A stretch of 64,000 bases of DNA from a virus, in IMG/VR virus record IMGVR_UViG_3300045988_174371, positions 128,001 through 192,000 of that record. One strand, given 5' to 3'. Within the stretch, counting starts at the first letter, position 1. The number at the start of each line of letters is the position of its first letter. The notes beneath the pieces are model-generated. The model saw nothing but the letters and a program-made list of their open reading frames with translations, did not search any database and was not told the origin of the DNA. Shown piece by piece: positions 16,257 through 32,158 of the stretch. The translations under genes were made by a program, and so were the position numbers.

Positions 16257-17525
16257 CTATTGCTCATTGAGTTCTGCCACCGCTTCGAGAGCTTCACGCA
16301 TCTCATTTAGGTACTTATTGCCTTCGTATCGGGCGTTTCCAACCCTGATGCCCACAATCCGCATTACGGTGTCCTTGAGGTACTGTAAACGCAGGACGCT
16401 ACGGCTCTTCTTAGCGTCGAGCGTCATAGAGCTGAGTTCTTCCAACAGTTCAAGCCAGCGGGGAGTCTTTCGATTTGCAGGCTTTGCCTTCTCTACCTCA
16501 ATTTCATCCTCAAGAAGGCTAATAAACCTGTTGAGGGGTTCCTCCTGTGCTTCGTAGAGCGCATGAATCTCACTCACCGCGTCAGGGTTTCGAGTAGGCA
16601 GAACAGCAAAGCTATTCACGTACACAGGCTCCACAGAGCCGCCCGCCTTCACTAGATGTAGAGCCAGGTCATACTTCACCTCTTCGTCATCGTACCAGTC
16701 TTCAACGTGGACAGCCTTAACGCGAAGGGTACCCACTTCATTGGCAGTAAGGTTCTGCACCTGAAGCTCAGAGTCAGAGCCGCCGGTCACCTGCAAGTAC
16801 TGCACGCCCGAAGCAGTCTCGACAGTCACAATGTCTCCAACGAAGCAACCAATGACAGAGCCGCCGCCCAGCGCGGCACTCCTTAGCTGAATAAACTTTG
16901 CCTCGCTGAGGTCTACTCCTTCAGCCGCGCCGTCCGCGTACTTCTGAACAGCTTCACGCTCATCACGGCTCAACAGACAAATAGCACTAGCCACCGACTC
17001 ACTATGCATATCGAGTGAAGTAACCCAGTGGTGATGTTCACCAGTAATGTAAAGATAGATGCGCTCAGCGTCGCCTAGGCGAATGACATGCGGGTTATTT
17101 CGACCTTCATTTAGGGGTGCAACATCGCACCAATCGCTGAAAGCAGACACACCCTTAGGTAGAGCCAAAGACTTACGAGCACGCACAAGCGCCGCGAAAT
17201 AATCCTTCGTCTCATACACAGCGCCATCCGGGAAAGCACGCACAATCTCAACAACCGCCTCAGGCTTGAAAGACTCACCATCCCTCTCACACGGCGACAG
17301 CTCACCCCAGGTAACGACCTGGCTAAGCGTGAAGCGCGGCGCGCCCGCTTCACCCTCGCAGGCAGTCAGTACACAGCGGGCGCGTGAAAAACCGGCAGGC
17401 TTCAAGATTGCGATACCAGCGCCATCATCCATAGAAAGTACCGTGTACAGACCATACTCACCGCCTTCAACCTCGGTAGTGATGATGACATCGCGAACCT
17501 TGAGGTCAGCAATAGTGATAGTCAT
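16257..17525 (-). CDS. hypothetical protein (422 aa)
   Basis: Long ORF trimmed to the ATG at 17525. The SD is weak. The C-terminus looks like a coiled coil. Confidence 0.6.
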   Translation of the reverse strand: MTITIADLKVRDVIITTEVEGGEYGLYTVLSMDDGAGIAILKPAGFSRARCVLTACEGEAGAPRFTLSQVVTWGELSPCERDGESFKPEAVVEIVRAFPDGAVYETKDYFAALVRARKSLALPKGVSAFSDWCDVAPLNEGRNNPHVIRLGDAERIYLYITGEHHHWVTSLDMHSESVASAICLLSRDEREAVQKYADGAAEGVDLSEAKFIQLRSAALGGGSVIGCFVGDIVTVETASGVQYLQVTGGSDSELQVQNLTANEVGTLRVKAVHVEDWYDDEEVKYDLALHLVKAGGSVEPVYVNSFAVLPTRNPDAVSEIHALYEAQEEPLNRFISLLEDEIEVEKAKPANRKTPRWLELLEELSSMTLDAKKSRSVLRLQYLKDTVMRIVGIRVGNARYEGNKYLNEMREALEAVAELNEQ

Positions 17526-17574
17526 AATGGGGGTACACCCTTTTCTGGAAATCATAGTAGTAAATAATAGGTCT

Positions 17575-17604
17575 AGTGTACCACATTATCGGCGGCAGGC
17601 AGGG
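17575..17604 (-). promoter_or_regulatory. cassette-family promoter (weak -35)
   Basis: AATGTGG-TACACT. Confidence 0.4.
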
Positions 17605-17983
17605 GCACCCCTAGCCAGCAAGCGCGAACAAGGCGACCTAAAGAGTGATAATGAGCAATGGCAGGTGGTAAGCATACAGTAACAGCTCACCGCCTATCAG
17701 CGCTCGCATACCCCCCCCAGCAGTGAGTAGTAGGTGTGCATCATGCAGTGAAAGTCCCATTGGGCGGCGGCTCAGCCTGGCAATAGCCGCGCTACAGCTA
17801 GACTCTAAGGCGACAGTAGGAAGCTACCACCGCATCCCTGGCAGGCAGTCAGCACCCCTAGCAAGGGGTGGCATGTGACAATCATCCAGCAGGCGGCAGA
17901 GTCGCTAGGGCAGGGCGTAGATAGAGACACACCCGCTCACCTCTTCCACCGCTGGCAGTGAAGTGTTTTTCAGGGCGCAAAGA

Positions 17984-18006
17984 AGCCCCTGCTACATGCA
18001 GGGGCT
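17984..18006 (-). terminator. short hairpin terminator of 18041..18388
   Basis: agcccctgc pairs with gcaggggct. Confidence 0.45.
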
Positions 18007-18040
18007 TTCATCTAGGGGTACTTGTTATGCGGTAACCATG

Positions 18041-18388
18041 TTAGAGGTTCTTAGTCAGCTCCTTACCAAGCTTGATGGTGTCGATAATCAGCTTTTCGTT
18101 ATCGAATACATACTTGAGTTGCCAGGGCGAAATCTCGAAGCCGTACTCAGTATGGGGGCGCAAAGTGTCGGAAAGAAGCGCTTGCACCTGGTAACCCTTA
18201 TAGGTGTTGTATGCCTTGAGTCGGATTGCCAGCGGCTTGTTCGGGTCGTTGATGTACTCAGCCTTAGCGGGCATGATGGGTTCTTTCACCTTTGCCTGGT
18301 AAGCGTCGGACTCCATGAAGGAGTTAATCTCCTTGAGGTACTGCTGAAGCTTTGCAACTGCTTCGTCGTAGTTCTTGTTGAAGTCCAT
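18041..18388 (-). CDS. small helical protein (115 aa)
   Basis: Trimmed to the ATG at 18388 behind CCGAAAGG. Confidence 0.65.
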   Translation of the reverse strand: MDFNKNYDEAVAKLQQYLKEINSFMESDAYQAKVKEPIMPAKAEYINDPNKPLAIRLKAYNTYKGYQVQALLSDTLRPHTEYGFEISPWQLKYVFDNEKLIIDTIKLGKELTKNL

Positions 18389-18421
18389 GATGGCAACCTT
18401 TCGGTCTAGGGAGAAACGGTC

Positions 18422-18457
18422 TGTAGCTTTTCTCTGGAAGCTCTCTTCCTCGCTACA
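18422..18457 (-). promoter_or_regulatory. 5' leader stem-loop
   Basis: Outer stem TGTAGC/GCTACA, inner GGAAG-AGAG-CTTCC. Confidence 0.5.
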
Positions 18458-18462
18458 TTTAT

Positions 18463-18492
18463 AGTCTAACACATATTTCAGACCGTCTGCAA
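18463..18492 (-). promoter_or_regulatory. cassette-family promoter
   Basis: TTGCAG, 18 nt, (TGTGT)TAGACT. Confidence 0.6.
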
Positions 18493-18776
18493 ATCGAATA
18501 TGGGTGAAGTACATCACATCCCATCAATGCACCCCACCCACACCTCATGACAGTAAAGGGCAAGAGCGCTACCCTAGCGCTCGCAAACCTATACAGCAAG
18601 GTAAGCAACCAGTAGTCACTGTAAGCCAGCGGCTCGCTACGGCAACTAACCTGCGGATAGCAAGCGCCCGCCATGCCGCCCAATAACCATTCCTGCACAC
18701 ATAAGCAAAGCGGGCGGGCAATCAGTGGAACACTCCATCTGATTACCCGCCCGGCTATTACCAAGCGCGTTACATG

Positions 18777-19163
18777 CTACATCCCAAAGTCGAAAGGCAT
18801 ACTGAGGGCAAACTCATACGTAGCCGTACCATTAAATACCTCAGGGGCACCAATAGGCTTATCACCCATTGCTCGAACAATTGCATCACTGATGCACAGA
18901 GCCACCTGACGCACAGCAGGGGAGTACAGAACGAACTCCACAGAAGGCTTAACGTCACCCTCCACCTGCACACCCTCGCCATCATCAACAGCGGGTGACT
19001 CTTCAATGGAGAACTTTACAACCCAGCTACCATACTCATTCGGAGCTTCAACCTGTTCTACCTGAACATCCTTAACGCTGAACTTGCTACCCTTCCAGAA
19101 GTTGCTAGACTCAGCGGGAAGGTCAGTAACAGACTTGAACTTGTGCCAAGAGGTGAGAAACAT
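18777..19163 (-). CDS. small acidic protein (128 aa)
   Basis: Trimmed to the ATG at 19163 behind AAGGAG. Confidence 0.6.
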   Translation of the reverse strand: MFLTSWHKFKSVTDLPAESSNFWKGSKFSVKDVQVEQVEAPNEYGSWVVKFSIEESPAVDDGEGVQVEGDVKPSVEFVLYSPAVRQVALCISDAIVRAMGDKPIGAPEVFNGTATYEFALSMPFDFGM

Positions 19164-19219
19164 GAAAAGCTCCTTAGGTGAACAAGCGGGCGATAGTACC
19201 CAAAAACGATTACACGTAT

Positions 19220-19249
19220 AGTCTAGCACATATTTCAGACCGTATGCAA
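19220..19249 (-). promoter_or_regulatory. cassette-family promoter
   Basis: TTGCAT, 18 nt, (TGTGC)TAGACT. Confidence 0.6.
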
Positions 19250-19500
19250 GTCGAATAGGGGTGAGGTGGGACACACTCGTATTCTATCCGCACATGGCGC
19301 TCGCATATAGCCGCCGCACACACGCGCTCACATGTCCCTCACCAGCAACCGGAAGCACCTCAATAAGCCACCCCTTAGCTCACGCGATAGTAGCCGCCGC
19401 GCAGGTAAGCCACCCTACACTCCAGCCATTGCGCATATTGCACAGCTGGACATAAAAGAGAGGGGGTAGAGGCTTGTGACACCCCTACCCCTCAATGGGA

Positions 19501-19902
19501 TTACTTGCCGAACTGTTCGTTATCGGCTTCAATGTCCTTACGACACTCTTCCAGTCGTCGCGTCAGACTATCGCTCTTATCGACAGTGTGCAAGGCGAAA
19601 GCGAACTCCTTTGCGCTAACGTCAGCGGCACGCATCTCATTAAGCAGATGCAGAGCATACACACGAGCACTCATCGCCTCAGAAGCAAGAACATGCAGGT
19701 ATGCAACGCGGTCAGCCTTACGGTCATTGCGGGCAAACACAATCGGCTCTACCGGCTCATACGACTCAGCAAGAAACAGCTTAACCTGAGAGTCGAGGTC
19801 AGCCTCAGCCGCCAGCTCATCAGCAAGGGCGCGAGCCTCACGCTCAACAGTGGCGAAAGTATTCAGAACTTCCTCTGCACGTTCCATAAGTTCACGAAGC
19901 AT
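19501..19902 (-). CDS. helical protein, paralogue of 15603..15995 (133 aa)
   Basis: Trimmed to the ATG at 19902 behind CCGAAAGG. Confidence 0.65.
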   Translation of the reverse strand: MLRELMERAEEVLNTFATVEREARALADELAAEADLDSQVKLFLAESYEPVEPIVFARNDRKADRVAYLHVLASEAMSARVYALHLLNEMRAADVSAKEFAFALHTVDKSDSLTRRLEECRKDIEADNEQFGK

Positions 19903-19935
19903 TGCAGGCAACCTTTCGGTAGTAAGTAAATGGTC

Positions 19936-19968
19936 TGTAGCTCTTCCAGAGGCTCCCCTCTCGCTACA
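19936..19968 (-). promoter_or_regulatory. 5' leader stem-loop (covarying inner stem)
   Basis: Outer stem TGTAGC/GCTACA. Inner stem AGAGG/CCTCT replaces GGAAG/CTTCC. Confidence 0.5.
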
Positions 19969-19973
19969 CTTAT

Positions 19974-20003
19974 AGTCTATCACAGATTTTAAATGCCATA
20001 TAA
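19974..20003 (-). promoter_or_regulatory. cassette-family promoter
   Basis: TTATAT, 18 nt, (TGTGA)TAGACT. Confidence 0.5.
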
Positions 20004-20228
20004 GCTGAATATGTGTGAGGTGAGACACATGGCGGCTAATCAGTTGCCCGCCAGGTGGCACTCACCCAATCAAGAGTAAGAAGAACGCAAGCATCACTAC
20101 CAGCATACCCAGTAGCAACCACCCCAGAATTAGCGCTCGCAAACCACCCACTAAACAGCCACAGCCAGCCCAGCGAACAGCACCCACAGACACACACTCA
20201 CAGGTCACATAGAGACACAAGGTAGACA

Positions 20229-20280
20229 GCTAAAGCCGCAAAGCAACCCCCTGCATGAGGGCTACCCTACGGCTTTAGCT
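20229..20280 (-). terminator. hairpin terminator of 20295..20693
   Basis: agctaaagccg pairs with cggctttagct, with an inner stem. Confidence 0.5.
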
Positions 20281-20294
20281 CAGAGCACTTCACT

Positions 20295-20693
20295 CTAGAC
20301 AGTAGCGAACGTCACGGTCTGCTTAAAGACTGGAACCCCGCCCTCAAACTCCACAAGAGCCTGACCCTGCGCTACGCGGTTACGCATCACGACCTTAAAC
20401 TCATCCACCATACGGCGCATAAGAACCTCACTCAGAGCAACATCACCCTCAACATCGACACTCATGGTCACACGACCAATCAGCCAACCATCATCACCAG
20501 GCTCCTTAGTCGAGTCAGTTGCCACCACCCCGTAAGTAACATGAGCCTCTTCACCTGAATCCCAGGAGACAAACTCAAGGCTCATCTTAGAAGAAGCCCA
20601 AGCCTCAATGTCGCCCATGTGGGCGGTACTGGTAGCGGTAAAGGGAAGGTTAGTGTAAGTGTAGGGCTTCATCACCTTAACAGTGCAGGACAT
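20295..20693 (-). CDS. hypothetical protein (132 aa), G/V-enriched
   Basis: Trimmed to the ATG at 20693 behind GAGGAG. It lies in the A/C-rich (plus-strand) zone. Confidence 0.55.
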   Translation of the reverse strand: MSCTVKVMKPYTYTNLPFTATSTAHMGDIEAWASSKMSLEFVSWDSGEEAHVTYGVVATDSTKEPGDDGWLIGRVTMSVDVEGDVALSEVLMRRMVDEFKVVMRNRVAQGQALVEFEGGVPVFKQTVTFATV

Positions 20694-20761
20694 TGTGCAA
20701 CTCCTCAAATCCTCAAACATGCGTATTAGCTTTGCGGGGAACATCCCCGATTGAACAATTT

Positions 20762-20791
20762 AATTATACCACAGATTCAGACAGGGGCGCA
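20762..20791 (-). promoter_or_regulatory. cassette-family promoter
   Basis: TTGCGC, 18 nt, (TGTGG)TATAAT. Confidence 0.6.
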
Positions 20792-21010
20792 AGCTATAGT
20801 GTGTGGCTTGCCCCAACAGAAACAAAAGATGGGCATGGGCGCCCTTCAAGCACTCACACCCATCACCACATTTAGCGAAGCAACCAACAAGCAACCACCA
20901 CTAAGACATAGCCACCCAAGAGAGCGCTCGCCATCAACTACAAGAGGAGTCACCCAAACCTAGTAGCCGGAGGCTCCCATACGCTACCCCATAGGCGGCA
21001 AACCTCACCC

Positions 21011-22090
21011 CTAGATAGTGAACCCCAGCTCACGATAGAAGCCCACCAACTGCTCACGCAACCACCGAACATACCCGACACTCTTCTCAATATCGAACAG
21101 CAGGTCAGCAGTAGCCGCCATCAGCACACCACGACACCTAGCATAATCATCAGCCCAACAGTAACGGTTACCATCAAGTTCCTCACGAGCAGGCAGGCAC
21201 TCAGGCTTACCCTCACCAGCACAGAACATGTCAAGGAAAATCTCTTGCAACGCATCAGGAAGAGAAACACCCTCATACTTGCTCGACTCAAGGTAAGAGT
21301 CAATATCCTCAAAAGAGCTAACAGGTAGAAGCTTCACAGTATCCGCATCAATCCAAAGGTCATCGTCACCAACCATAACCCGCAGATAAACACAGCCCCT
21401 GTCAGTATCATAAATAAGCCCCTCACGGTCACTCACACCACCAGAGCCACCATAAAGAACAACCCCAGTCTTATGCTTATTATCAACAACCTTAAAATAG
21501 CCATGCCCCTCATATTTACGCTGGAACTGATAGATACCACCAACTACAAGCTTAACACCAGCCCACTTGCGGTACTCACGGTACTCGTCCAAATCAGGCT
21601 CAACCCAAGACCTGTCCTGATACTTCAACCAGCCCGCGTAAAAATCCTCAAAAGCCCGCAGACACTCCATACGCTTACCCTCAACCCACGCGCTCGCCTC
21701 AACCAAAGAAGCCTCAACCTCACCCAGCCACCTAACAACAGCATCAACAGGCTCACGGTCAGTTAGTGACAACGCACCCACGCCCTTTGGGTAAGCAAAC
21801 CTACTCAAAGCCCTAGCACTATCACCCGGCGAAAACACAGCCGCACTCAAACGCTTTAGGCGACTCTCACGGTTAAACCACACCAACGCCTCAGCGTCAG
21901 ACGCATCAACCCCCAAGGGAACAACACCAGCCGAAACAGGGACACCCACACGTACCTCACCATCACCAGCAACACCAGACACAGCGAAAGACTCACCCTC
22001 ACGCGAACGCTCCACAATAACCGACTCCACATGCAGAACACCCACAGCGGTAGACACAACATCACCAGGAGAAACAGACACAACAGACAT
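21011..22090 (-). CDS. mosaic-family protein, skew-zone member (359 aa)
   Basis: Same length as 13233..14312. Shared blocks: WFNRESRLK, AWVEGKRMECLRAFED, GGIYQF, VKLLPVSSFEDIDSYL. The rest is strongly G/V/A/S-enriched. Confidence 0.7.
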   Translation of the reverse strand: MSVVSVSPGDVVSTAVGVLHVESVIVERSREGESFAVSGVAGDGEVRVGVPVSAGVVPLGVDASDAEALVWFNRESRLKRLSAAVFSPGDSARALSRFAYPKGVGALSLTDREPVDAVVRWLGEVEASLVEASAWVEGKRMECLRAFEDFYAGWLKYQDRSWVEPDLDEYREYRKWAGVKLVVGGIYQFQRKYEGHGYFKVVDNKHKTGVVLYGGSGGVSDREGLIYDTDRGCVYLRVMVGDDDLWIDADTVKLLPVSSFEDIDSYLESSKYEGVSLPDALQEIFLDMFCAGEGKPECLPAREELDGNRYCWADDYARCRGVLMAATADLLFDIEKSVGYVRWLREQLVGFYRELGFTI

Positions 22091-22289
22091 AACGAAAAAC
22101 CTCTTTCAAAAACTCAACAAGACAAGCAGGCAGAACACCCACCCACAGAACACAGAACGCAGGGCGCTCGCACAGACATAAGGCGCTCACCAAAGCAAGC
22201 ACCCACCCACCTAAGCAAGCAGACAGGTAGGAAAAAGGAAGGACGGAAACCCCTAATAGGAACCCGCCACTCCCGCAAGACACCACTAA

Positions 22290-22424
22290 CTAACCAAACA
22301 CGCGCTCACGCGCATAAGATACCACCTCTTCCACAGCGTTCAAAATCTCCAGAGCCAGCGCCTCATCATCCTTAGCAACAACCTCAGCCCAATCAGAGGC
22401 AAAAGAAGACGCAAGGTCACGCAA
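22290..22424 (-). CDS. possible small ORF (44 aa, TTG start)
   Basis: Hand translation gives MRDLASSFASDWAEVVAKDDEALALEILNAVEEVVSYARERVFG. It abuts the stop of 22426..22635 and is below the track cutoff. Confidence 0.3.
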   Translation of the reverse strand: MRDLASSFASDWAEVVAKDDEALALEILNAVEEVVSYARERVFG

Positions 22425-22425
22425 C

Positions 22426-25889: not shown

Positions 25890-25908
25890 TGTGTTGTGGG
25901 TGGTGTAG

Positions 25909-25963
25909 GAAGAAGGAGCCTCTGGTTTCCCGTGTTTGTGCGGGTTGCCAGGGGCTCCTTCTT
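25909..25963. terminator. bidirectional hairpin between convergent ORFs
   Basis: gaagaaggagcctctgg pairs with ccaggggctccttctt. Confidence 0.55.
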
Positions 25964-25978
25964 GTGTTTGGGGGGGGG

Positions 25979-26803
25979 TTATTCTTCGTAGTCGGGGTGG
26001 TTGGTGATGGTGTTGATGTGGTGGTGGGTTTGGTTGGCTAGGTTGGTGTGTCCTTCTTTGGTTGCGATGTCGTGTACGGTGGTGAGGTAGTCTTTGGTGC
26101 GCCAGAGGATTTCGCTGTCGGATACCCAGTGCATTTCGCCTTCGATTGCGTAGTAGTCGGAGATGTTTTGCCAGAGGGAGGTTAGTTCTTCTTCGAGGGT
26201 TTCTTGGTGTTTGGGGTTGTTTAGGAGGGTGTGGTATTCGGGGTGGGTGAGGGTTTCGTGGAGTGCTAGTGCGGTTTCGGGGGTGAGGGGTGCGGTTTCG
26301 CTTTCGGGGATGTTGAAGGTTTCGGGTAGGGGGTTGGTGTAGGTGAGGGTTGCGTTGAGGACTGCCCAGATGTTGTAGCCGTCTAGGAGGGTGGTGTATT
26401 CGTTGGGTTCGTCGGGGATTGCGCGGGTTGCGTCTCCGTTGAGGGTGTGGGCGATGCTGATGTCGTGGTAGTGTTCGGTGCTGTGCCAGATGGTGATGTC
26501 GCCGTCGTTTTCGATGGCATAGTAGATGGGGGTGGGGGTGTCTTTGCGGGTGCCGATGTTTACGGCTTTGAGCTCTTCGAGGTCGGGGGTGGTGAGTTGT
26601 CCGTTGGTGCGGGTGATGTTGATGGTGTGGGGTGCGTTGAAGCTTGCATGGCGGAGGGTTGCGGTGGCGTGGTTGGTGTCGGTTACCTGGTCGATGGCGT
26701 AGATTGCCATGCGGTCGTCGGTCTCTTCGTTGGTGGGGGTGAAGAGGATTCCGTCGTTGGTGTTGAGGGTTTCCCAGTAGAGGAAGGGGGTGATGGTTCG
26801 CAT
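25979..26803 (-). CDS. hypothetical T/N/H/P/E-rich protein (274 aa)
   Basis: ATG behind GAAAGAGAG. Promoter at 26907-26936. It is encoded on the A/C-rich strand. Confidence 0.6.
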   Translation of the reverse strand: MRTITPFLYWETLNTNDGILFTPTNEETDDRMAIYAIDQVTDTNHATATLRHASFNAPHTINITRTNGQLTTPDLEELKAVNIGTRKDTPTPIYYAIENDGDITIWHSTEHYHDISIAHTLNGDATRAIPDEPNEYTTLLDGYNIWAVLNATLTYTNPLPETFNIPESETAPLTPETALALHETLTHPEYHTLLNNPKHQETLEEELTSLWQNISDYYAIEGEMHWVSDSEILWRTKDYLTTVHDIATKEGHTNLANQTHHHINTITNHPDYEE

Positions 26804-26906
26804 TGTTGGTGCTCTCTTTCTGTGTTTAATGATTGGGGGGTAAGCCTTGTGGGGCTTGTTGGGTTAGGTGGTGGGTTGAGGTTTTCTCTCAACTCCTTAT
26901 GTTTAG

Positions 26907-26936
26907 ATTGTACCACATATTTGTGATGTATGCACC
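26907..26936 (-). promoter_or_regulatory. cassette-family promoter
   Basis: GTGCAT, 17 nt, (TGTGG)TACAAT. Confidence 0.5.
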
Positions 26937-27050
26937 TTATGGGGTGTGTTTTAGCTCTCTCTTCTATAGGGGGGGGTGGGGCTTTGCTTCTGCGGTGGCA
27001 TGGTGTAGTGTTGGTGGTGTTATTTCCTTTTGTTTTTGGAGGTTTTCCTG

Positions 27051-28052
27051 ATGATTTACGATGTTTTTTCGGCGCGACCTGGGTTTAAGTTTTTTGGGGT
27101 TGATGATGTTCTTCGTTTGCGGTCTTTGGGGGTTTCTAAGTCGTGGGATGAGGTGTGGGACGCTAAGTGTGTTGATGTTGCTGTTGAGGTGTTGGGGGTT
27201 GATGAGGGGTTTTGTTATGGGCGGCTTGAGGATGCTTTTGGTGAGGGGCGTGATGACTGGGAGTATGAGTGTGATGTACTGGATGGTTTCACGTTGGCTG
27301 ACCTTGAGGCTGAGGGGTTGCCTGCTGGTGAGGTGATGAGGTTGTGGGAGTCTGGTCGCCTTGTTGGGGATGATTTTGGTGGCGAGTTGAGGTTTACTCG
27401 GGCTCAGTTCTGGGGTGGGGTTGGTGTGTCTGAGCTGGTGGTGCATGAGGAGTTTTTTGAGGTGTTGGGAGTGTTCCGGCGTTTGGGTGTTCCGGCGGCG
27501 GATGCGGGTGTTTTCCTGTTTGAGCCTAGGGATAATTATGGCTTCCTGGCTCCAGCTGAGTTGTTGCTGTCTGGGGTTGATGAGTTGCGTGATTTGGTAG
27601 TTGCGGATGCTCATGGGTGTGCTATTGAGCGTAGGGGTGTTGGTGTTGTTGATGAGTGGGTGCGTGCGTCTGTGGGTACTGTTCCTGCGCCGGGTGTGGT
27701 GGTTGGCTTGGTTGGTAAGGGCGTTGATTTTGGTGCTGTTTTTGGTGGGGGTTTTGGTGAGTTCCCTTATGAGGTGGTAGGTAGGGTTGCTGAGGGTTTG
27801 GGTATTCCGGTGAGTGTGTTGATGTGTCGTGTGAAGGGTATGCGTTATGGGTTGGGTCGTCGTAGGGAGGGTACGGGCGGGCTTATGGATGAGTTGGAGG
27901 GTTTTGGTTGGTCTGATGGCTCGATTGCGGAGTTTTTGAGGGTTCCGTCGCCGTGGTTTGGTGTGGTTCCTCCGTTGGAGTATGCGCGCCTTGGTGATGA
28001 GTATGTGGGTGCTGTTGTGGCGGTTGCGAAGTTTATTGATAGCCGCCGGTAG
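27051..28052 (+). CDS. hypothetical G/V/F/E-rich protein (333 aa)
   Basis: ATG at 27051 lies 8 nt after GGAGG. The C-terminal FLRVPSPWFGVVPPLEYARLGDEYVGAVVAV weakly resembles DUF2384-type antitoxin C-domains. That similarity is not verified. Confidence 0.55.
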   Translation: MIYDVFSARPGFKFFGVDDVLRLRSLGVSKSWDEVWDAKCVDVAVEVLGVDEGFCYGRLEDAFGEGRDDWEYECDVLDGFTLADLEAEGLPAGEVMRLWESGRLVGDDFGGELRFTRAQFWGGVGVSELVVHEEFFEVLGVFRRLGVPAADAGVFLFEPRDNYGFLAPAELLLSGVDELRDLVVADAHGCAIERRGVGVVDEWVRASVGTVPAPGVVVGLVGKGVDFGAVFGGGFGEFPYEVVGRVAEGLGIPVSVLMCRVKGMRYGLGRRREGTGGLMDELEGFGWSDGSIAEFLRVPSPWFGVVPPLEYARLGDEYVGAVVAVAKFIDSRR

Positions 28053-28186
28053 ACGATGGCTATTTGTGGGGCTGGTGTATGGTTCTAGGAGCCGTGCGCC
28101 AGCCTTCCTTTTGTGCTTTATGCGGGTGTGATTAGTCCCCCGGTGTGCCTGCGTGTGCTGGTTGCCGGGGGACTATTTTGGTGGTG

Positions 28187-28849
28187 TTATTGGGTTTTAG
28201 CGGTGTTGATGATTTCTATGTTCGGTTCATTGGTGGTGGCTTTCTGGATGAGTAGGGTGCGGTTGAGGGCTTTGAGGAAGTGTTTGTGTTCTGGTTGGGT
28301 GATGGCTTGTGTGATGGGTGTTTTGTGGTTGGTGGGTGTGATGGTTATTTCGGTGTGTAGGTTGGTTTCTATGGGGTGGGTGATGGTGATGGAGTGGTCG
28401 GATTGGGGGTTGGTGTGAATGTATCCTCTTGTTAGGCTTGTGGGTTTGGTGTTGGGGCTGGTTGCAGGGGTGTGGTAGGTGTTTTCATGGATGGTGGCGG
28501 TCTTGTGGTGTTGTTGGGCGAGGTGGGCTACTGTTTCGAAGTTGGCGTTGGTGTGGTAGCAGGAGAGGGTTAGGGAGTAGGGTGCTCCGTCGAGGTCAAG
28601 GTTTAGGCTCCAATGGCTCATGTCGAATCCGAGTTGGTGGAGCTTATATTTGAGGGTGAGTCCTTTGATGCCCATGCGTTTAAACGCCTGGTTGTTGCGT
28701 TTCTTGAGTGTGGCGGGGTGTTCGATGATGTCGCCGTGTGGGGTGACTGCGAAGGTGTCGGGGGTTAGTTCGAGGGGGTCTCCTATGTTCATGTAGGCTA
28801 CTGCTATTTTGTCGCCCTTTTCTAGTTTGGTGTTGGGGTTGGCGTTCAT
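28187..28849 (-). CDS. hypothetical protein, paralogue of 29643..30350 (220 aa)
   Basis: Shares the R(N)N..(F/L)KR(M/L)GIKGL.LK.KL..LGFDMS.W core with its paralogue. The C-terminal half is T/H/N/P-rich. Confidence 0.6.
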   Translation of the reverse strand: MNANPNTKLEKGDKIAVAYMNIGDPLELTPDTFAVTPHGDIIEHPATLKKRNNQAFKRMGIKGLTLKYKLHQLGFDMSHWSLNLDLDGAPYSLTLSCYHTNANFETVAHLAQQHHKTATIHENTYHTPATSPNTKPTSLTRGYIHTNPQSDHSITITHPIETNLHTEITITPTNHKTPITQAITQPEHKHFLKALNRTLLIQKATTNEPNIEIINTAKTQ

Positions 28850-28908
28850 TTGAGTATTCCTTTCTTAGGGGCTGGTTAGGTGTTTGCCGTTTGGGGTATC
28901 TATGTGTA

Positions 28909-29592
28909 CTAGAAGCAGTCGGAGATGTCGTAGGGGTCTTCCCCTGCCGCGTTTTCCAGGTACACGCCCTGAGAGATTAGTGCCTTTGCCTCTCTAATGT
29001 TTTCGCTATCCTTTCCGAATAGGTGTTCTAGCACGTCTGAGCTGTTGCTAATAATTGTGACTGGCACTGGTTCTAGTAGGCTCTCTGCGCCGTGCCTGCG
29101 GATGAGTGTGGGGAGCTCTTGCCATGAGATGCGGTCGCCGTTGAAGTAGATATGTGGTTCTACGTTCAAGTGTTCAGACCATTCTAGCGTATCGGCGTTA
29201 GGGGTCTTGGTTAGGTGTTTGCTGATTGCATAGCACCTGTTTTCAGTGGGTGCTTCGGTTTGCGTACACCACTGGGTGACGTTCTGGTAGACCTTTTGGT
29301 TCGCGGGGATGCCGTTGATGCGAACCTCTGAGTCTGGGTGTGTAGTGAAGAATGCTATGGGGTGCCATTCGCTATCTGCGGGGGTCTGAATGTGTATCCG
29401 TTTCTGCCACCCATTTTCGGATTGTTCGCAGGCATGGATACGTTCCATTAGCTCCTTGATGGTGAGGGTAGGTTCGGTGGCTTGGGCTACTGCGCGTCGC
29501 CATAGGCGCTGTCTGTAGTCTTTCGGGCGTGGCTTCAGCATGAGGTTGATGAGCGGGTTTGACGGGGTGTATTTGTATTCGGGGTATTGCAT
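28909..29592 (-). CDS. hypothetical protein (227 aa)
   Basis: ATG behind AAGGAGAAA. Confidence 0.6.
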   Translation of the reverse strand: MQYPEYKYTPSNPLINLMLKPRPKDYRQRLWRRAVAQATEPTLTIKELMERIHACEQSENGWQKRIHIQTPADSEWHPIAFFTTHPDSEVRINGIPANQKVYQNVTQWCTQTEAPTENRCYAISKHLTKTPNADTLEWSEHLNVEPHIYFNGDRISWQELPTLIRRHGAESLLEPVPVTIISNSSDVLEHLFGKDSENIREAKALISQGVYLENAAGEDPYDISDCF

Positions 29593-29642
29593 CTGTTTTT
29601 CTCCTTAGCGGCGTGTAGGGCGGGGCGATATGGGTGGGGTAG

Positions 29643-30350
29643 TTATCTTTCGTTGATGATGACCCAGCTGTCTTCGTATGGGGGTTCTGGGTCGGTTATT
29701 TTCTGGATGTTTGCGTGTTCTTTGAGGTTGGCGTTTAGGTCTTTGAGAAACCTTTGGTGGTCTTCCTGTTTGAGGGCTGTTTCGAGGGTTGAGTGTGGTG
29801 CTGTGGGTTTGACGACTATCTCGTTAAACAGGCGTGCTCCAGGGGTAAAGGTGATAGTGAGGGATGGTTCGCCGTGCGTGTGGGTGCGAATCTGGTGTTC
29901 GGTGTGGGTTGAGTTGTTGTATGAGGTGTAGGTGTCCTCATAGATTTCTGGGTTTGTGTAGTGCAGGTGGGCGAGGGTGTCTATGATTCCTGCTGTGGTT
30001 TGGGTCGTGTTGGTGTTGAGAATGAGGGCGCAGGGGTGATTGTCGGTATCGAGTTCGATGCGCCAGCGGCTCATGTCGAACCCTAGTTTGCGGAGTTTAT
30101 GCTTGAGGATGAGCCCTTTGATGCCTAGGCGTTTGAGGATGCGGTTATTGCGCGCATTGATAGAGTTAGGCATGACAGGGTGTAGGGGTTCGTCAATTGC
30201 GGTGCCGTTAGGGGCATAGTGTCGTTTGCCGATGCCGTCGAAATAGTAGTCAATGGGGTGTTTCTTGGCGTATTCTACGGCAGTGCCTTTGACATTTACG
30301 TAGATTACTTTCACAGTCTCTTCAGTGTTGGTGTTTTTACGGGGAATCAT
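29643..30350 (-). CDS. hypothetical protein, paralogue of 28187..28849 (235 aa)
   Basis: ATG behind GGAAAGGAA. Confidence 0.6.
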   Translation of the reverse strand: MIPRKNTNTEETVKVIYVNVKGTAVEYAKKHPIDYYFDGIGKRHYAPNGTAIDEPLHPVMPNSINARNNRILKRLGIKGLILKHKLRKLGFDMSRWRIELDTDNHPCALILNTNTTQTTAGIIDTLAHLHYTNPEIYEDTYTSYNNSTHTEHQIRTHTHGEPSLTITFTPGARLFNEIVVKPTAPHSTLETALKQEDHQRFLKDLNANLKEHANIQKITDPEPPYEDSWVIINER

Positions 30351-30390
30351 GGCGTGGACGGTTCCTTTCCTTGGCGGGCTTGTTGGTTCT

Positions 30391-30420
30391 ATTGTAGCAT
30401 TTAGGTAGGCTTTTGGCGGA
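30391..30420 (-). promoter_or_regulatory. possible extended -10 promoter of the 30350-to-28187 operon
   Basis: Minus strand AAATGC-TACAAT. Confidence 0.4.
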
Positions 30421-30499
30421 GGTTCTGTAGGGGTGTTCTGTGATATTCTTATGGTACTTACTTTCCTTGTATTTCCTGGTTGTTGTGGAGGTTTTTCTA

Positions 30500-32143
30500 G
30501 TGGCTGATAGTTCAGTTGCGGCTGGTGTTGGTCGTGTTGGTCGGTCTGTTGTGGAGGGGTTGGCTCCGGGGGTGTTTTCGGGTTCTGGGTCTATTGGTGA
30601 GCTGGAGGATGCGGGGTTCAGTGTTGGGCATTTGGTAGATGGTTTCGTGTTGGCTTCTGGCGTGCCGGTTGAGGGTGGGTCGGTGTTGGAGCGTGCGCGT
30701 GGTGTGCGTGATTTTTCGCAGGTTCCTGTTGCTTTCAGGTCTTTTGTGGCTGAGTGTGCTGGGTATGTCTGGGATGGTTCGGTTGTTTCTTCTGTTGGTG
30801 GGGTGTTCCTGCATGGTGGGTTTTCGTTTGGTGTGACTCCTCGGGCTAGGTGGTCTTTTGGTGGTGTCTCGGGCGTTGATTTTGAGGCTGTTCAGGAGGG
30901 GTTTGTTGTTCCAGCTTCGGGGGTTGGTGTTGGTGAGCTTGCTTCGGCGGTCGGTGTTGAGCTGGGTGGGTTAGTTGCTCCGCCTGGCAGGTTAGGGCTT
31001 GGTGCTGGTATTGGTGAGTTGTCTTCGTTTAGGTTTGATTATGATGGGCGAGGTTCGCGTATGAGTTCGACTGAGGTTTCTAATGCTTTGGCTTTGGAGC
31101 AGGCTTCTTATTGGCTGTCTCGTGTCGGGGAGGTTGATGTTGTTTCTCCGCCGCTGGTTGGGGAGTCGCCGGATGTTGTTGCTGAGCGTTTGAAGCGTGT
31201 TAGGCGTGCTTCTAAGGGGGAGAATGGTGTTGCTCCGCGCCTGATGGGTTCACGTCGTGAGGTTGAGATTATGGGGTTCATTGGACTATTTGGCTGGGTG
31301 GACGTTCGCGCTGTAATGCTGTTGCTGGGTGTTTCTACTAGAGTTACTGCGTTGAAGTATTTGAAGGGTTTGCAGGGGCGCGGGTGCCTGGATGCAGTGG
31401 ATGTGCCTGGGCTCGGGCATAGGGTTTGGGTTGGTACCCGTGTCGGGTTGGATGAGTTCGGAATTGGCGGCGCTACGGTTTCTCGTAAGACTTTGGGCAA
31501 CAGCGAGTTTAAGCATAGGGTGTTGGTGAACTATGTGGGCGCTATGCTGGTGAACGGTTCGGTTGATGTTTTGGGCTTGGGTGGGCTTGTCTCTGGTGGT
31601 CGTCTGGTTGGCGGGCAGGTTTCGCGTGGCTTTTCTGTTATTCCTGACCGCGTGATTGACAGTGCAATTCAGGGCATGTTTAGAGGGCGTGCTGGGTATG
31701 ATGTGCGTGATGTGCTACTTGCCCGACGTGGTGAGGTGTTGCGCGAGTGGCGTGTTGCTGGTGGCGAAGGTGTTTCGCCTGAATGTTATGGCGGCAATGA
31801 GTGGATGTGGGCTGTTATGAGCGGCGCTTCGGAGGGCAAGTACCATGTGCCAGATATTGTGTGCATGATTCCTCGTGGTGAGAATGGTGAGCCGCGCAGT
31901 GTTGCCGTTGAGGTGGAGCGCGGGTTTGGCAAGAAGCCCGGCAACCTGGAGAAGATTCTGAGCCAGTATAAGGATGATAGGAGCGTTTTTGGGATGGTGG
32001 TGTGGTTGTGCACTGATGACCGTATGGTGATGAGAGTGAATGAGTGGGCGGAGGCGAACGGGTGTGCTGAGCGTATTCGCGCTGTTCGTTTGTGTCGCCC
32101 TGATGGGTCGGTGTTTGAGGGTATCTCGTCGTTTGAGTTTTAG
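30500..32143 (+). CDS. replication-relaxation (Replic_Relax-like) family protein; candidate relaxase/Rep (547 aa)
   Basis: wHTH-like segment EIMGFIGLFGWVDVRAVMLLLGVSTRVTALKYLKGLQGRGCL, FKHRVLVNY, and KYHVPDIV...SVAVEVERG...LEKILSQY. Recognised from memory, not searched. Start moved to GTG 30500, 8 nt after GGAGG. The N-terminal about 200 aa are a G/V/S-rich low-complexity region. Confidence 0.55.
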   Translation: MADSSVAAGVGRVGRSVVEGLAPGVFSGSGSIGELEDAGFSVGHLVDGFVLASGVPVEGGSVLERARGVRDFSQVPVAFRSFVAECAGYVWDGSVVSSVGGVFLHGGFSFGVTPRARWSFGGVSGVDFEAVQEGFVVPASGVGVGELASAVGVELGGLVAPPGRLGLGAGIGELSSFRFDYDGRGSRMSSTEVSNALALEQASYWLSRVGEVDVVSPPLVGESPDVVAERLKRVRRASKGENGVAPRLMGSRREVEIMGFIGLFGWVDVRAVMLLLGVSTRVTALKYLKGLQGRGCLDAVDVPGLGHRVWVGTRVGLDEFGIGGATVSRKTLGNSEFKHRVLVNYVGAMLVNGSVDVLGLGGLVSGGRLVGGQVSRGFSVIPDRVIDSAIQGMFRGRAGYDVRDVLLARRGEVLREWRVAGGEGVSPECYGGNEWMWAVMSGASEGKYHVPDIVCMIPRGENGEPRSVAVEVERGFGKKPGNLEKILSQYKDDRSVFGMVVWLCTDDRMVMRVNEWAEANGCAERIRAVRLCRPDGSVFEGISSFEF

Positions 32144-32158
32144 TGTGTCGAGGTAAAC

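Follow-up and report, generated by a model that had tools for sequence, protein, structure and literature searches.

A mirror-image strand-composition domain with G+T-rich outward strands on a circular conjugative element from the human mouth

In a 64,000-nt window of a metagenomic virus record (IMGVR_UViG_3300045988_174371, positions 128,001 to 192,000; all coordinates below refer to this window), the plus strand changes from 79% A+C at 23.0–23.5 kb to 92% G+T at 24.0–24.5 kb. The locus raises the question of what process could bias the two strands in opposite directions on either side of one site. The host replicon is a circular conjugative element of approximately 360 kb from human mouth metagenomes. 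Versions of 360,715 and 360,588 bp differ by exactly the k of the assembler (127) and have different start points, which together are the signature of a circle.

Strand composition of the two arms

In 500-nt bins, the skew (G+T−A−C)/N is approximately 0 before 16 kb and declines from −0.14 at 16.5 kb to −0.58 at 23.0 kb. The sign flips within 23.40–23.60 kb, and a value of +0.84 is reached at 24.0 kb, where 500 nt hold 8 A and 31 C. The skew stays at +0.74 to +0.81 up to 26 kb, at about +0.5 up to 28.5 kb, and at +0.28 to +0.58 up to 32.5 kb, followed by +0.1 to +0.2. In 200 shuffles of the window, the maximum |skew| in any 500-nt bin was 0.29. The sign change and the gradient reported in a preliminary description of this DNA are thus present, and the amplitude is, as stated there, far beyond ordinary replication skew. 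All nine of its hand counts per 60-nt line were reproduced exactly with a line start of x+1 (A+C 32, 39, 46, 54; G+T 56, 48, 45, 39, 33), as were the 1 A and 3 C of line 25,021–25,080. The polarity switch (23,400–23,500) contains the minimum of the cumulative G+T minus A+C at 23,474.

The left arm (16,500–23,400) is A+C-rich on the plus strand, the outward 5′-to-3′ minus strand being G+T-rich; in the right arm (23,570–33,000), the outward 5′-to-3′ strand is the plus strand, and it is G+T-rich as well. The purine/pyrimidine skew of the arms is approximately 0, as expected if only transitions are involved. At four-fold degenerate sites, G/T reaches 97–100%. The four-fold-site skew per kb amounts to −0.18, −0.31, −0.18, −0.36, −0.27, −0.78, and −0.62 from 16 to 23 kb in the left arm, compared with roughly +0.1 to +0.2 in the background, and to 0.97, 0.97, 1.00, 0.84, 0.82, 0.67, 0.74, 0.56, 0.40, and then 0.13 in the right arm. 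The last two values (32–33 and 33–34 kb) belong to the gene of a VirB11/TadA-type secretion ATPase (32,430–33,989, minus strand; Pfam T2SSE, E = 3.9e-32), inside which the skew is still declining.

The domain is local and its decay roughly exponential. An exponential was superior to a linear ramp in both arms (log-likelihood gain 3.0 right, 14.6 left). The fitted e-folds are 1.64 kb (right) and 2.37 kb (left), and the excess odds are about 200 at the centre for the right arm and 9.3 for the left. The e-fold of 1.6–2.4 kb replaces the decay length of approximately 8 kb suggested earlier. The mirror image is two-sided with opposite signs, but the arms are unequal, the right one being about 20 times stronger. 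Beyond approximately 20 kb, the four-fold composition is alike on both sides (KM 0.205 vs. 0.206, GC skew 0.352 vs. 0.353), which indicates that there is no long-range replichore switch at this site.

Conservation among relatives

The mirror domain was found in every relative fetched and in more than 10 independent assemblies, the profile being seen also in L011, L013, L014, L025, L028–L034, and L037/L038. It persists in relatives with no more than 64–83% identity in the 359-aa arm protein, and the switch sits at homologous conserved non-coding sequence in 11 of 11 relatives examined. Contigs of 175–360 kb from different samples and assemblers span the centre, where the sequence is unique and conserved. 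The domain is real, conserved, and heritable.

Mutational nature of the bias

The bias is mutational and independent of gene orientation, as had been proposed, because it peaks at synonymous sites, has an equal sign in genes of both orientations, and pulls the make-up of the proteins in opposite ways depending on orientation. Third and four-fold sites carry the largest skew (0.97–1.00 at 24–27 kb), and among genes under purifying selection the plus-strand skew keeps its sign whether the gene lies on the plus or the minus strand. The residues G/V/F/W/C/L make up 49–75% of the products of plus-strand genes (27% in the far field), and P/T/N/K/Q/H make up 41% in those of minus-strand genes (29% in the far field).

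In the closest pair (L011/L013), the far-field differences comprise 83 A–G, 52 C–T, and 12 G–T exchanges, compared with 3 A–G, 4 C–T, and 15 G–T in the extreme zone, where transitions are depleted about ten-fold and G–T exchanges predominate. Such a pattern would follow if any A or C newly arising on the outward strand were erased at least approximately 100 times faster than it appears; in the core, transitions toward G/T on the outward strand outpace their reversals at least approximately 100-fold. A/(A+G) drops from 0.40–0.59 to 0.07–0.10 and C/(C+T) from 0.40–0.60 to 0.15–0.18, so that the A-to-G change has gone at least as far as the C-to-T change, an outcome inconsistent with simple hydrolytic deamination. 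The C that remains varies with the preceding 5′ base (YC 0.05–0.16 vs. GC 0.23–0.27), being retained after a purine. Both properties are at odds with the C-to-T/A-to-G deamination of single-stranded DNA put forward in the preliminary description, at least in its spontaneous form.

A segment of L032 sitting 10 kb nearer to the centre showed an excess of the predicted changes (104 vs. 71, p = 0.015); with three of the four comparisons of moved segments not significant, it constitutes a weak natural experiment. The polarisation of substitutions that had been recommended as a check did not yield the expected excess by parsimony. We attribute this to homoplasy at hypermutable sites and do not regard it as positive evidence.

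The non-coding centre

The non-coding centre of approximately 1.3 kb (22,654–23,966), delimited by family alignment, is flanked by the first minus-strand gene of the left arm on one side and by a gene composed almost only of G and T on the other. Codon periodicity is absent in every frame of the centre, and the open reading frame at 23,555–24,214 has skews of 0.70/0.70/0.71 at the codon positions. A conserved structured element occurs in only two copies within the window, copy 1 at 22,906–23,058 (minus strand; direct repeats D15/D16; nhmmer E = 7e-35) and copy 2 at 23,162–23,305 (minus strand; 247 bp from copy 1; nhmmer E = 7e-15). Copy 1 contains the hairpins GGTTGA-TTT-TCAACC and TGCAC-CAAA-GTGCA as well as the near-invariant TAACGCACTGACAAGG, and its minus-strand end carries a terminator-like CAACC-N5-GGTTG with a T-run. 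It is kept even in the most divergent relatives; a test for compensatory covariation in the element detected none. The two copies are direct repeats on one side only and do not form a symmetric pair.

Direct reading of the sequence revealed an A-rich purine tract (23,297–23,348, plus strand; short direct repeats D9/D10). A pyrimidine-rich block (23,400–23,610, plus strand) harbours five TCTAG(C/T) motifs (CTAG cores starting at 23,441, 23,496, 23,524, 23,541, and 23,597), which the divergent relatives L029, L030, and L034 retain as CTGTCTAGC. The 170-bp stretch at 23,400–23,570, previously described as a pyrimidine tract, is pyrimidine-rich but not pure (71% pyrimidine). A T/G/C block (23,480–23,960, plus strand) is rich in TGTCT and GTGTC in comparison with shuffled sequences (TGTCT: 14 observed vs. 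2.8 expected). G-quadruplex motifs cluster in this region, flanking the centre on the outward strands. The repeat search detected no inverted terminal repeats spanning the centre, and no initiator, primase, or polymerase gene adjoining it was recognised among the proteins of the window.

Genes inside and beyond the arms

The gene composed almost only of G and T (23,967–25,889, plus strand) encodes a 640-aa protein with 33% Gly and 22% Val. An open frame alone is uninformative in this region (181 of 2000 shuffles were fully open). Differences between strains are distributed over the codon positions as 18/21/50 and 14/13/47, G–T exchanges number 2 at position 2 versus 38 at position 3, and indels are mostly multiples of 3; judged from these comparisons, the gene is under purifying selection. 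A hairpin between convergent genes (25,910–25,963; inverted repeat I18; terminator-like calls) is probably a bidirectional terminator. Within the extreme zone, a 274-aa gene (25,979–26,803, minus strand) has plus-strand skews of 0.26/0.38/0.90 at codon positions 1/2/3, and A or C occupies 0 of 127 four-fold sites in the 26–27 kb bin. Farther outward, a 340-aa gene under purifying selection (27,030–28,052, plus strand; codon-position differences 7/3/24 and 14/7/25) and three genes of 220, 227, and 235 aa (28,187–30,350, minus strand), of which the first and third are paralogous, were found. The gene at 29,643–30,350 (minus strand) is under purifying selection (12/8/31 and 35/28/83), and its four-fold sites are still G/T-rich on the plus strand.

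The gene at 30,440–32,143 (plus strand), under strong purifying selection (codon-position differences 12/1/59), encodes a 567-aa protein. A profile search found 249 representative clusters, and its relatives point to a distant relationship to Replic_Relax (PF13814; MOB-C relaxase/plasmid replication): five of ten distant relatives match PF13814, one of them above the gathering score. The window protein itself had no Pfam match and reached no Pfam threshold, and the link is transitive; the protein is a candidate nicking or initiator protein. Its structure model (pLDDT 39) was too poor for a structure search.

The type IV secretion components at 36,336–38,116 (minus strand) are a VirB4-like ATPase (AAA_10, E = 6.3e-32) and a PrgI/VirB3-like protein whose match is weak (E = 1.6e-4) and falls short of the curated threshold. 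They are followed by a RecG-family branch-migration helicase (42,752–45,475, minus strand; PDB sequence search, 1gm5 RecG, E = 1.3e-82, residues 238–867), an element-encoded DnaB-type replicative helicase (50,720–52,156, minus strand; Pfam DnaB_C, E = 8.7e-49), and a single-strand DNA-binding protein (55,435–55,986, minus strand; Pfam SSB, E = 5.6e-11). Enzymes of the RecG type remove R-loops and D-loops. The relatives of the element's DnaB belong to the family only from 99 to 56% identity and, after a gap, are cellular DnaB proteins at 29–35%. The far-field genes on the right are all head-on to any fork departing from the centre, and the plus strand is the template for nearly all genes within 90 kb.

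Discussion

We propose, with a probability of roughly 0.5, that the centre is a fixed site of initiation or nicking (oriV and/or oriT) with short, poorly corrected or strand-displacing synthesis running outward on both strands. We infer all three components, namely the initiation or nick role of the centre, the process using it, and the chemistry. DNA synthesis or strand opening would repeatedly begin at the centre and run outward on both strands over a stochastic length (e-fold approximately 2 kb). The domain itself records a strand-specific transition pressure built up over time, with A-to-G and C-to-T changes falling on the outward 5′-to-3′ strand to the left and right of a fixed position at approximately 23.3–23.6 kb. 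The likeliest cause would be the copying of the new outward strand with poor correction of G:T wobble mispairs, possibly by an initiating or nick-extending polymerase before the hand-off to the main replisome. Uncorrected errors of this type would enrich the new strand in G+T, and a single kind of mispair would account for both A-to-G and C-to-T. Deamination of the displaced parental strand would be an alternative cause with the same polarity. The site might be a vegetative origin, a transfer origin, or both.

The initiation or nick site is supported by the repeated motifs and the two conserved hairpin elements at the centre, by the type IV secretion, RecG, DnaB, and SSB genes nearby, and by the Replic_Relax/MOB-C-related protein in the right arm (for the family, see PMC5357655, PMC3424549). 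Error-prone Pol I at ColE1 is a known analogue, with a distance-decaying, strand-specific initiation footprint (PMC3167613). The 20-fold amplitude gap between the arms, the one-sided layout of the hairpin elements, the lack of a recognised initiator, primase, or polymerase gene by the centre, and the head-on genes of the right far field count against such a site. Because the far field shows no polarity change, the domain is no demonstration of an origin of the classical bidirectional kind for the whole replicon; from the bidirectional origin suggested previously, the two-sided, origin-type polarity stands, but the identical far-field composition speaks against a divide between two replichores.

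A bidirectional origin with delayed lagging-strand priming or persistent D-loops, at which C turns into U and A into hypoxanthine, spontaneously or enzymatically, by deamination of the displaced, single-stranded parental strand, is a possible though unlikely source of the domain. It has the right polarity in either arm, and synonymous sites show the gradient at its strongest, a combination likened to the heavy strand of animal mitochondrial DNA (PMC8565317, PMC3269015). Exponential decay would also result from stochastic D-loop length, the gene products of the element include SSB, DnaB, and a RecG-type helicase acting on D-loops/R-loops, and a sequence-selective single-strand cytosine deaminase could equally yield the 5′-base dependence of residual C. 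However, adenine is deaminated hydrolytically far more slowly than cytosine, and C-to-T saturates first in vertebrate mitochondrial DNA, whereas A-to-G is at least as complete here. The excess of at least 100-fold is larger than the approximately 100-fold single-strand effect on cytosine unless the DNA is single-stranded nearly always, no deaminase domain was found among the proteins of the window, and the polarity does not switch in the far field. It is rather doubtful that the centre acts as a transfer origin nicked on either strand, mostly the plus strand, where the first few kb of single-stranded transfer or donor re-synthesis differ per event and leave two unequal mirror arms. Unequal use of the strands would explain the 20-fold arm difference, and the element has type IV secretion genes. 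Read on the plus strand, the conserved element presents a hairpin and then the invariant 16-mer, an arrangement which we take to resemble relaxase nick regions; this candidate nick motif lies approximately 400 bp left of the switch, though, within the A+C-rich side. The MOB-C/Replic_Relax-related protein is encoded inside the right arm (PMC5357655), but 7 kb from the centre, and the restriction-endonuclease-like fold of its family (PMC3424549) makes action on both strands conceivable. The role of the plus strand as template of nearly all genes within 90 kb is the orientation expected if this strand is transferred (PMC11541004). Known leading regions are one-sided, and a survey of their composition reported only higher GC and more variable GC skew (PMC13478746). 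Transfer is also rare in comparison to vegetative replication, the excess of at least 100-fold would demand a very mutagenic step per transfer, and neither a nic site nor a coupling protein was identified.

The remaining explanations are far less probable. Strong divergent transcription from the centre, with R-loops exposing the non-template strand on each side to mutation as at immunoglobulin switch regions, is very unlikely. The polarity would fit, transcription leading away from the centre in all left-arm genes and rightward in the G/T-only gene; R-loops are favoured where the non-template strand is G-rich, the outward strands carry G-quadruplex motifs on either side of the centre, and a RecG homologue is present. 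This explanation, also listed in the preliminary description, is contradicted by the right-arm minus-strand genes beyond the hairpin terminator, whose four-fold sites are 80–100% G/T on the plus strand, that is, the template, and one of which (29,643–30,350) is clearly under purifying selection. Plus- and minus-strand genes show no systematic difference in amplitude, and transcription-associated damage is mainly C-to-T, whereas here A-to-G has gone at least as far. It is similarly hard to credit that the composition is selected, with a G+T-only or A+C-only strand avoiding hairpins and palindromic restriction sites or serving G-quadruplexes or the encoded proteins. An all-keto strand necessarily rules out every palindrome and every stop codon, G-quadruplex motifs cluster here, and the G/T-only gene is under purifying selection, but the bias peaks at four-fold sites and falls smoothly with distance, crossing genes that are unrelated and differently oriented and reaching into the gene of the secretion ATPase. 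Selection would need to act on each of hundreds of near-neutral sites, and opposite protein shifts that follow orientation are the mark of a pressure acting on the DNA rather than of selection on the proteins. That the assembly is chimeric, or that the ends of a linear protein-primed replicon were joined here, both considered earlier, is extremely improbable. Strand displacement from protein-primed ends gives the same polarity (5′-ended strands rich in G+T), and several short Logan contigs terminate within the low-complexity arms. Yet long contigs pass straight through the centre, more than 10 independent assemblies cross it with the same domain and the same conserved sequence, the k-sized length difference marks a circle, and inverted terminal repeats are absent.

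In the library searched, no description of a two-sided hypermutation zone was found for any bacterial plasmid or phage, in agreement with the initial impression that no such local two-sided gradient had been reported. What appears to be new is a local mirror-image mutational footprint in which the outward strand on each side is almost wholly G+T.

Strand composition and its decay

The plus-strand keto skew, (G+T−A−C)/N in 500-nt bins, lies between about 0 and +0.15 across most of the window. On the left side it is −0.14 at 16.5 kb and has dropped to −0.58 by 23.0 kb, the sign flips inside 23.40–23.60 kb with a cumulative minimum at 23,474, and at 24.0–24.5 kb the skew is +0.84, with 8 A and 31 C per 500 nt. 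Values of +0.74 to +0.81 are kept as far as 26 kb, and the background is reached again by about 33 kb. On both sides of the switch, the strand running 5′-to-3′ away from the centre (the outward strand) is G+T-rich. After shuffling of the window (n = 200), the skew of a 500-nt bin never exceeded 0.29. The mirror-image keto/amino domain with a polarity switch, which a preliminary description had proposed from reading the sequence, was thus recovered as a gradient with a sign flip in the windowed skew, and all nine of its hand counts per 60 nt were reproduced exactly. Its "170-bp pyrimidine tract" was not recovered, as 23,400–23,570 is only 71% pyrimidine. GC content and purine/pyrimidine balance are flat across both arms (left, 16,500–23,400; right, 23,570–33,000), which is expected from transitions alone.

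At four-fold sites the skew in the right arm, per kb from 24 kb, is 0.97, 0.97, 1.00, 0.84, 0.82, 0.67, 0.74, 0.56, 0.40, and 0.13; in the left arm it is −0.62 and −0.78 beside the centre and lies between −0.18 and −0.36 from there to 16 kb. In the most extreme stretch, none of 127 four-fold sites is A or C. The G/T odds at these sites were fitted as a baseline plus an excess decaying with distance from 23,474, giving an excess of about 200 with an e-fold distance of 1.64 kb for the right arm and an excess of 9.3 with 2.37 kb for the left arm. For both arms, the exponential form was better than a linear ramp. The last two values of the right arm (0.40, then 0.13) fall within the secretion ATPase gene, and this smooth decay inside a gene indicates that no boundary element is involved. 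At least 20 kb from the centre, where all genes are on the minus strand, the four-fold composition of the two sides is alike (KM 0.205 vs. 0.206, GC skew 0.352 vs. 0.353, TA skew 0.045 vs. 0.049). The opposite skew along two replichores is therefore absent, and the domain is purely local rather than the junction of two differently skewed replichores.

Mutational origin of the bias

The bias is mutational and acts at the DNA level. It is greatest at synonymous sites, is graded by distance from the centre, and has the same sign on the plus strand in genes of either orientation. The skew at codon positions 1/2/3 is 0.87/0.56/0.97 in the plus-strand gene at 23,967–25,889 (the G/T gene), 0.26/0.38/0.90 in the minus-strand gene at 25,979–26,803, and −0.38/−0.07/−0.70 in the minus-strand gene at 21,011–22,090. 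The encoded proteins are shifted in opposite directions: the residues G/V/F/W/C/L make up 49% in right-arm plus-strand genes and 75% in the G/T gene versus 27% in the far field, and P/T/N/K/Q/H make up 41% in right-arm minus-strand genes versus 29% in the far field. Together, the codon-position pattern, the orientation-independent sign, and the opposite protein shifts exclude selection on codons or proteins as the cause, and the earlier statement that the bias is mutational and ignores gene orientation holds. Differences between strains at codon positions 1/2/3 number 12/1/59 for 30,440–32,143 (+), 12/8/31 and 35/28/83 for 29,643–30,350 (−), and 14/7/25 for 27,030–28,052 (+); these comparisons show the arm genes of both orientations to be real genes under purifying selection.

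Transcription is an unlikely driver as well. An asymmetry caused by transcription or R-loops was expected to leave the non-template strand G/T-rich and was rejected, since in the right-arm minus-strand genes the template strand is the G/T-rich one and these genes lie beyond a hairpin terminator at 25,910–25,963.

Conservation of the domain and integrity of the assembly

The contig that holds the window has 360,715 bp and comes from a human oral metagenome; the same sequence exists in another version of 360,588 bp with a different start point. In ERZ989713 k127_64826 (Ga0557493_011585), the window occupies positions 181,232–245,231. The two contig versions differ by 127 bp. This number is the k of the assembler, and such a difference is typical of circular contigs, which suggests that the element is a closed circle of about 360.6 kb. 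The mirror profile was found in every related locus fetched, namely in three loci with 89%–96% nucleotide identity to the window (L011, L013, and L014) and in eight more distant ones (L025 and L028–L034; contigs of 44–358 kb, seven of them 175–358 kb), whose 359-aa protein is 64%–83% identical, and also in three IMG/VR contigs. In all relatives showing this profile, the switch is located at the homologous conserved non-coding sequence. More than 10 assemblies run across the centre, and an inverted repeat spanning it, including a large one, was not found. Joined ends of a linear protein-primed replicon, which the preliminary description had listed as an alternative, are for practical purposes ruled out by these crossing assemblies together with the mark of circularity and the lack of an inverted repeat, and misassembly is likewise excluded for practical purposes by the conserved profile and switch site.

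Within the arms, divergence is mosaic: 28,200–30,400 and 22,300–24,000 differ by 14%–25% between strains versus 1%–4% in the flanks, a sequence pattern indicating allelic replacement or recombination. The gene at 28,909–29,592 has a four-fold skew of 0.43, below that of the neighbouring genes. The related locus L032 lacks the segment corresponding to window 8,500–18,400, and L028 carries about 3.8 kb extra at about 18,500. Such rearrangements shift the distance of genes to the centre and could be used as natural experiments.

Substitution spectra

In the far field, the closest pair of loci (L011/L013) differs by 83 A–G, 52 C–T, 12 G–T, 10 A–C, 3 A–T, and 7 C–G exchanges (2.3% overall). The extreme zone of the same pair shows 3 A–G, 4 C–T, 15 G–T, no A–C, no A–T, and 2 C–G exchanges (1.0% overall), so that transitions are depleted about ten-fold and G–T exchanges predominate. 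This is expected if a new A or C on the outward strand reverts to G or T far faster than it arises, because each transversion then finishes as a G–T exchange. A two-state model points to a rate ratio of the order of 100 or more, in agreement with the fitted excess of about 200. When singletons were polarised by parsimony, changes toward A/C outnumbered those toward G/T and the predicted excess was not seen; since hypermutable sites undergo parallel changes, this method was not considered reliable, and the unpolarised close-pair spectra were used in its place. For a segment lying 10 kb nearer to the centre in L032, 104 predicted versus 71 opposite changes were counted (p = 0.015), and three other comparisons were null. 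The moved segment thus lends weak support to a dependence on distance. At right-arm four-fold sites, A/(A+G) is 0.07–0.10 and C/(C+T) 0.15–0.18, with baselines of 0.40–0.60. A-to-G change is hence no less complete than C-to-T change, and the residual C sits mostly after a 5′ purine.

Anatomy of the centre

The centre is a non-coding region (22,654–23,966). Its features, listed from the left, are a promoter-like site belonging to the first left-arm gene, a pair of conserved elements, an A-rich purine tract, a pyrimidine-rich block, and a T/G/C block rich in TGTCT (14 occurrences vs. 2.8 expected). The conserved element of about 145 nt is present in two direct copies 247 bp apart, each with three hairpins and a near-invariant TAACGCACTGACAAGG, and on the minus strand each copy finishes in a terminator-like hairpin followed by a T-run. 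The two copies are direct repeats on one side of the switch and not a facing pair. No further copy occurs in the window, the covariation test of the hairpins gave no compensatory pairs, and no tRNA or Rfam family was found within the window. The pyrimidine-rich block has five TCTAG(C/T) motifs, and the motif is kept as CTGTCTAGC in the most distant relatives. In L030 (reverse-complement position 6,064) and in IMGVR_UViG_3300008748_000172 (L037/L038), copies of the conserved element are 1.7–4.3 kb apart with a gene between them, and one copy in this comparison has a different 3′ hairpin; the variable spacing and the altered hairpin mark the element as modular and not as a tandem pair of fixed layout.

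On either side of the centre, the outward strand carries G-quadruplex motifs. Both minus-strand motifs of the window lie just left of the switch (23,099–23,124 and 23,268–23,291), seven of the ten plus-strand motifs are in the right arm, and 24,017–24,105 is a pure G/T run of 89 nt with telomere-like G4T-type repeats. Beside the centre, a small gene block (22,289–22,734) encodes ORFs of 44 and 69/75 aa that are fused to 117 aa in relatives. It is 96%–98% identical to L025/L031, the flanks of which are 69%–87% identical, and harbours a near-perfect 23-nt hairpin (22,425–22,481).

The stop-codon desert and the G/T gene

The region 23,600–26,000 is a stop-codon desert, in which one strand is nearly devoid of A and the other of T, so that frames are open by composition alone. 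Nearly all plus-strand stops are lost, and the minus-strand frames are open but lack start codons. Of 2,000 shuffles of the G/T region, 181 were fully open, and both strands were open. Long open frames were therefore rejected as evidence of coding, which was judged by codon-position substitution counts instead. By these counts, the frame at 23,967–25,889 (+; 640 aa) evolves like a gene under selection, its product being rich in Gly and Val, and mutational pressure may have shaped this gene or given rise to it.

Gene content of the element

The element is a circle of roughly 360 kb with 52% GC, and its relatives have 294–368 kb. The family is common in oral metagenomes, is labelled viral by IMG/VR, and is absent from the GTDB representative genomes. 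When phage and plasmid collections were searched for sequences nearly identical to the window, no match was obtained, and the sole match in a scan of GTDB genomes was an unrelated Bacteroidetes helicase. Inocle, a giant oral element, was excluded by its GC content (24%–32%). The relatives of the DnaB at 99%–56% identity all belong to the family and are followed by a gap down to cellular DnaB at 29%–35%.

The window encodes a VirB11/TadA-like (T2SSE) ATPase, a VirB4-like (AAA_10) ATPase, a weak PrgI match, and a large M23 peptidase, and these sequence matches suggest a monoderm-type conjugation system. Replication and repair are represented by SSB, DnaB, and a RecG homologue. The last of these, at 42,752–45,475, is a "DEAD helicase" of 907 aa (E = 1e-82 to PDB 1gm5), about 230 aa of which form an additional N-terminal region. 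Among some 50 window proteins, Pfam revealed no deaminase, reverse transcriptase, polymerase, primase, or classical Rep. No initiator gene recognised by Pfam adjoins the centre; a gene related to Replic_Relax is 7 kb off. Its product (30,440–32,143, +; 567 aa) is encoded in the right arm, is under strong constraint, belongs to a family of 249 representative clusters, and contains an invariant PD...ExE..K-like motif. The protein itself has no Pfam match, PDB sequence and profile searches were empty, and its AlphaFold model (pLDDT 39) was too poor for a fold search. Of ten distant relatives (profile E = 1e-35 to 1e-38), five match PF13814, one of them above the cut-off. Via these relatives, and thus transitively, the protein probably belongs to a broad family related to Replic_Relax (PF13814), a MOB-C relaxase/plasmid replication family with a PD-(D/E)XK fold (PMC5357655, PMC3424549).

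The left part of the window (1–22,100) and locus L039, which extends it by 8 kb on the left, form at least 31 kb of small same-strand genes without Pfam matches, each preceded by a spacer of 200–500 bp. Many of them belong to families of paralogues (e.g., 21,011–22,090, 13,233–14,312, and 12,215–13,054; 6,917–7,864, 8,691–9,653, and 9,786–11,054). This array resembles an accessory or anti-defence island.

Possible mechanisms

Any mechanism has to meet three constraints: the outward strand is affected from one fixed site, the effect decays exponentially over about 2 kb, and transcription is ignored. The simplest process of this kind would be DNA synthesis or strand opening that starts at a fixed site and extends away from it along both strands, over a distance that varies stochastically. 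The observed polarity would follow from either of two chemistries. Errors may be made in the new outward strand, with G:T wobble mispairs placing G or T there, or the displaced old strand may be deaminated. Errors in the new strand are favoured, because one type of mispair covers the roughly equal rise of A-to-G and C-to-T and because a 100-fold excess needs no more than a small share of uncorrected synthesis. With spontaneous deamination, adenine changes cannot reach such a level. The deamination of a displaced strand put forward in the preliminary description agrees with the gradient and its strength at synonymous sites, but C-to-T is not the more complete change, as a deamination of the mitochondrial type would have predicted from the much faster deamination of cytosine. 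An enzyme-driven deamination is possible, and the effect of the 5′ neighbour on residual C would suit it.

As to its function, the centre may be used in vegetative replication, in conjugative transfer, or in both. A replication origin fits the local polarity and the repeated motifs, as well as the RecG, DnaB, and SSB encoded by the element. The bidirectional origin suggested earlier is in accordance with the sign switch and the G+T-rich outward strands; the opposite skew that it should impose along the replichores is missing, the two sides having identical four-fold composition at least 20 kb out. A serious alternative is an oriT at which either strand is nicked. This would agree with the lack of a far-field skew switch and with the MOB-C-like gene and secretion genes close by, although a one-sided leading region does not account for a two-sided pattern. 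A bolder reading, which we consider rather improbable, is that the element possesses a built-in hypermutation zone of defined position. Starting from a nick or initiation site, error-prone synthesis or deamination would there alter the outward strand over a few kb per side, so that the genes in the zone are continually reshaped or even newly made. It would be the natural counterpart of engineered nick- or origin-targeted mutators, with the stop-codon-free desert yielding a selected Gly/Val-rich protein and the fast-diverging alleles at 22–24 kb and 28–30 kb as possible examples.

Comparison with known systems

The principle is common to several known systems, each of which fails at least one of the features tested. 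One of the closest analogues is animal mitochondrial DNA, the heavy strand of which is G+T-rich and which replicates by strand displacement. There, one strand is driven to G+T by A-to-G and C-to-T changes, mostly at synonymous sites and graded relative to the origins, with an amplitude at four-fold sites comparable to that of the domain (PMC8565317, PMC3269015, PMC3269012). Unlike the mitochondrial gradient, the domain is confined to a short stretch of the replicon (e-fold about 2 kb out of 360 kb), has a two-sided mirror switch and a more extreme core, and shows an A-to-G change no less complete than C-to-T. Error-prone DNA polymerase I at ColE1 also leaves a strand-specific mutation density that declines with distance from the initiation site over roughly a kilobase, because the polymerase that initiates is then replaced by the main replisome (PMC3167613). 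That footprint is engineered, of laboratory timescale, and one-directional, whereas the domain is a natural equilibrium composition on both sides. A ColE1-type start would be unidirectional, with a processed transcript as primer and an antisense RNA as regulator; here the footprint is two-sided, and the conserved hairpin elements are terminator-like at their minus-strand end and have neither covariation nor an Rfam match.

In the ordinary GC/keto skew of origins, the G+T-rich strand likewise runs 5′-to-3′ from the switch point (PMC3269016). Such skew usually amounts to between a few per cent and about 20% and extends along a whole replichore, whereas here it is 84% in bulk and about 100% at four-fold sites and is gone within about 10 kb. 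In IncQ plasmids (RSF1010), leading-strand synthesis proceeds outward from the origin and the non-template strand is displaced on each side. Unlike IncQ, the element has no RepA, RepB, or RepC by Pfam, and its two hairpin elements do not face each other. For chloroplast DNA, D-loop replication has been deduced with the help of deamination gradients (PMC2695485); no comparable local saturation is reported for IncQ or chloroplast D-loop origins. The element resembles conjugative oriT/leading regions of the MOB-C (Replic_Relax) type in its type IV secretion genes and MOB-C-related protein, in a non-coding centre with short repeats and hairpins, and in genes with one strand as template. Leading regions, unlike the domain, are one-sided and have mild compositional peculiarities (PMC13478746), and a near-pure G+T strand is not described for them. 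In the literature searched, a keto/amino domain of this kind, local, two-sided, and close to saturation, is not described for any bacterial element. The domain is real, conserved, and very unusual, and the most fitting class for it is that of initiation-linked strand asymmetry, in a new, extreme, and local form.

If this is true, one site in a large bacterial replicon imposes an at least 100-fold transition bias on one strand per side, fading over about 2 kb. Such domains would offer a sequence-only way to locate initiation or nick sites in uncultured mobile elements, and a natural case for comparing the fidelity of initiation-phase synthesis, or single-strand exposure, with bulk replication. 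The genes written in two letters, with protein composition split by gene orientation, illustrate how far proteins tolerate mutational rewriting, and the domain points to a large and widespread family of 300–370-kb elements in the human mouth.
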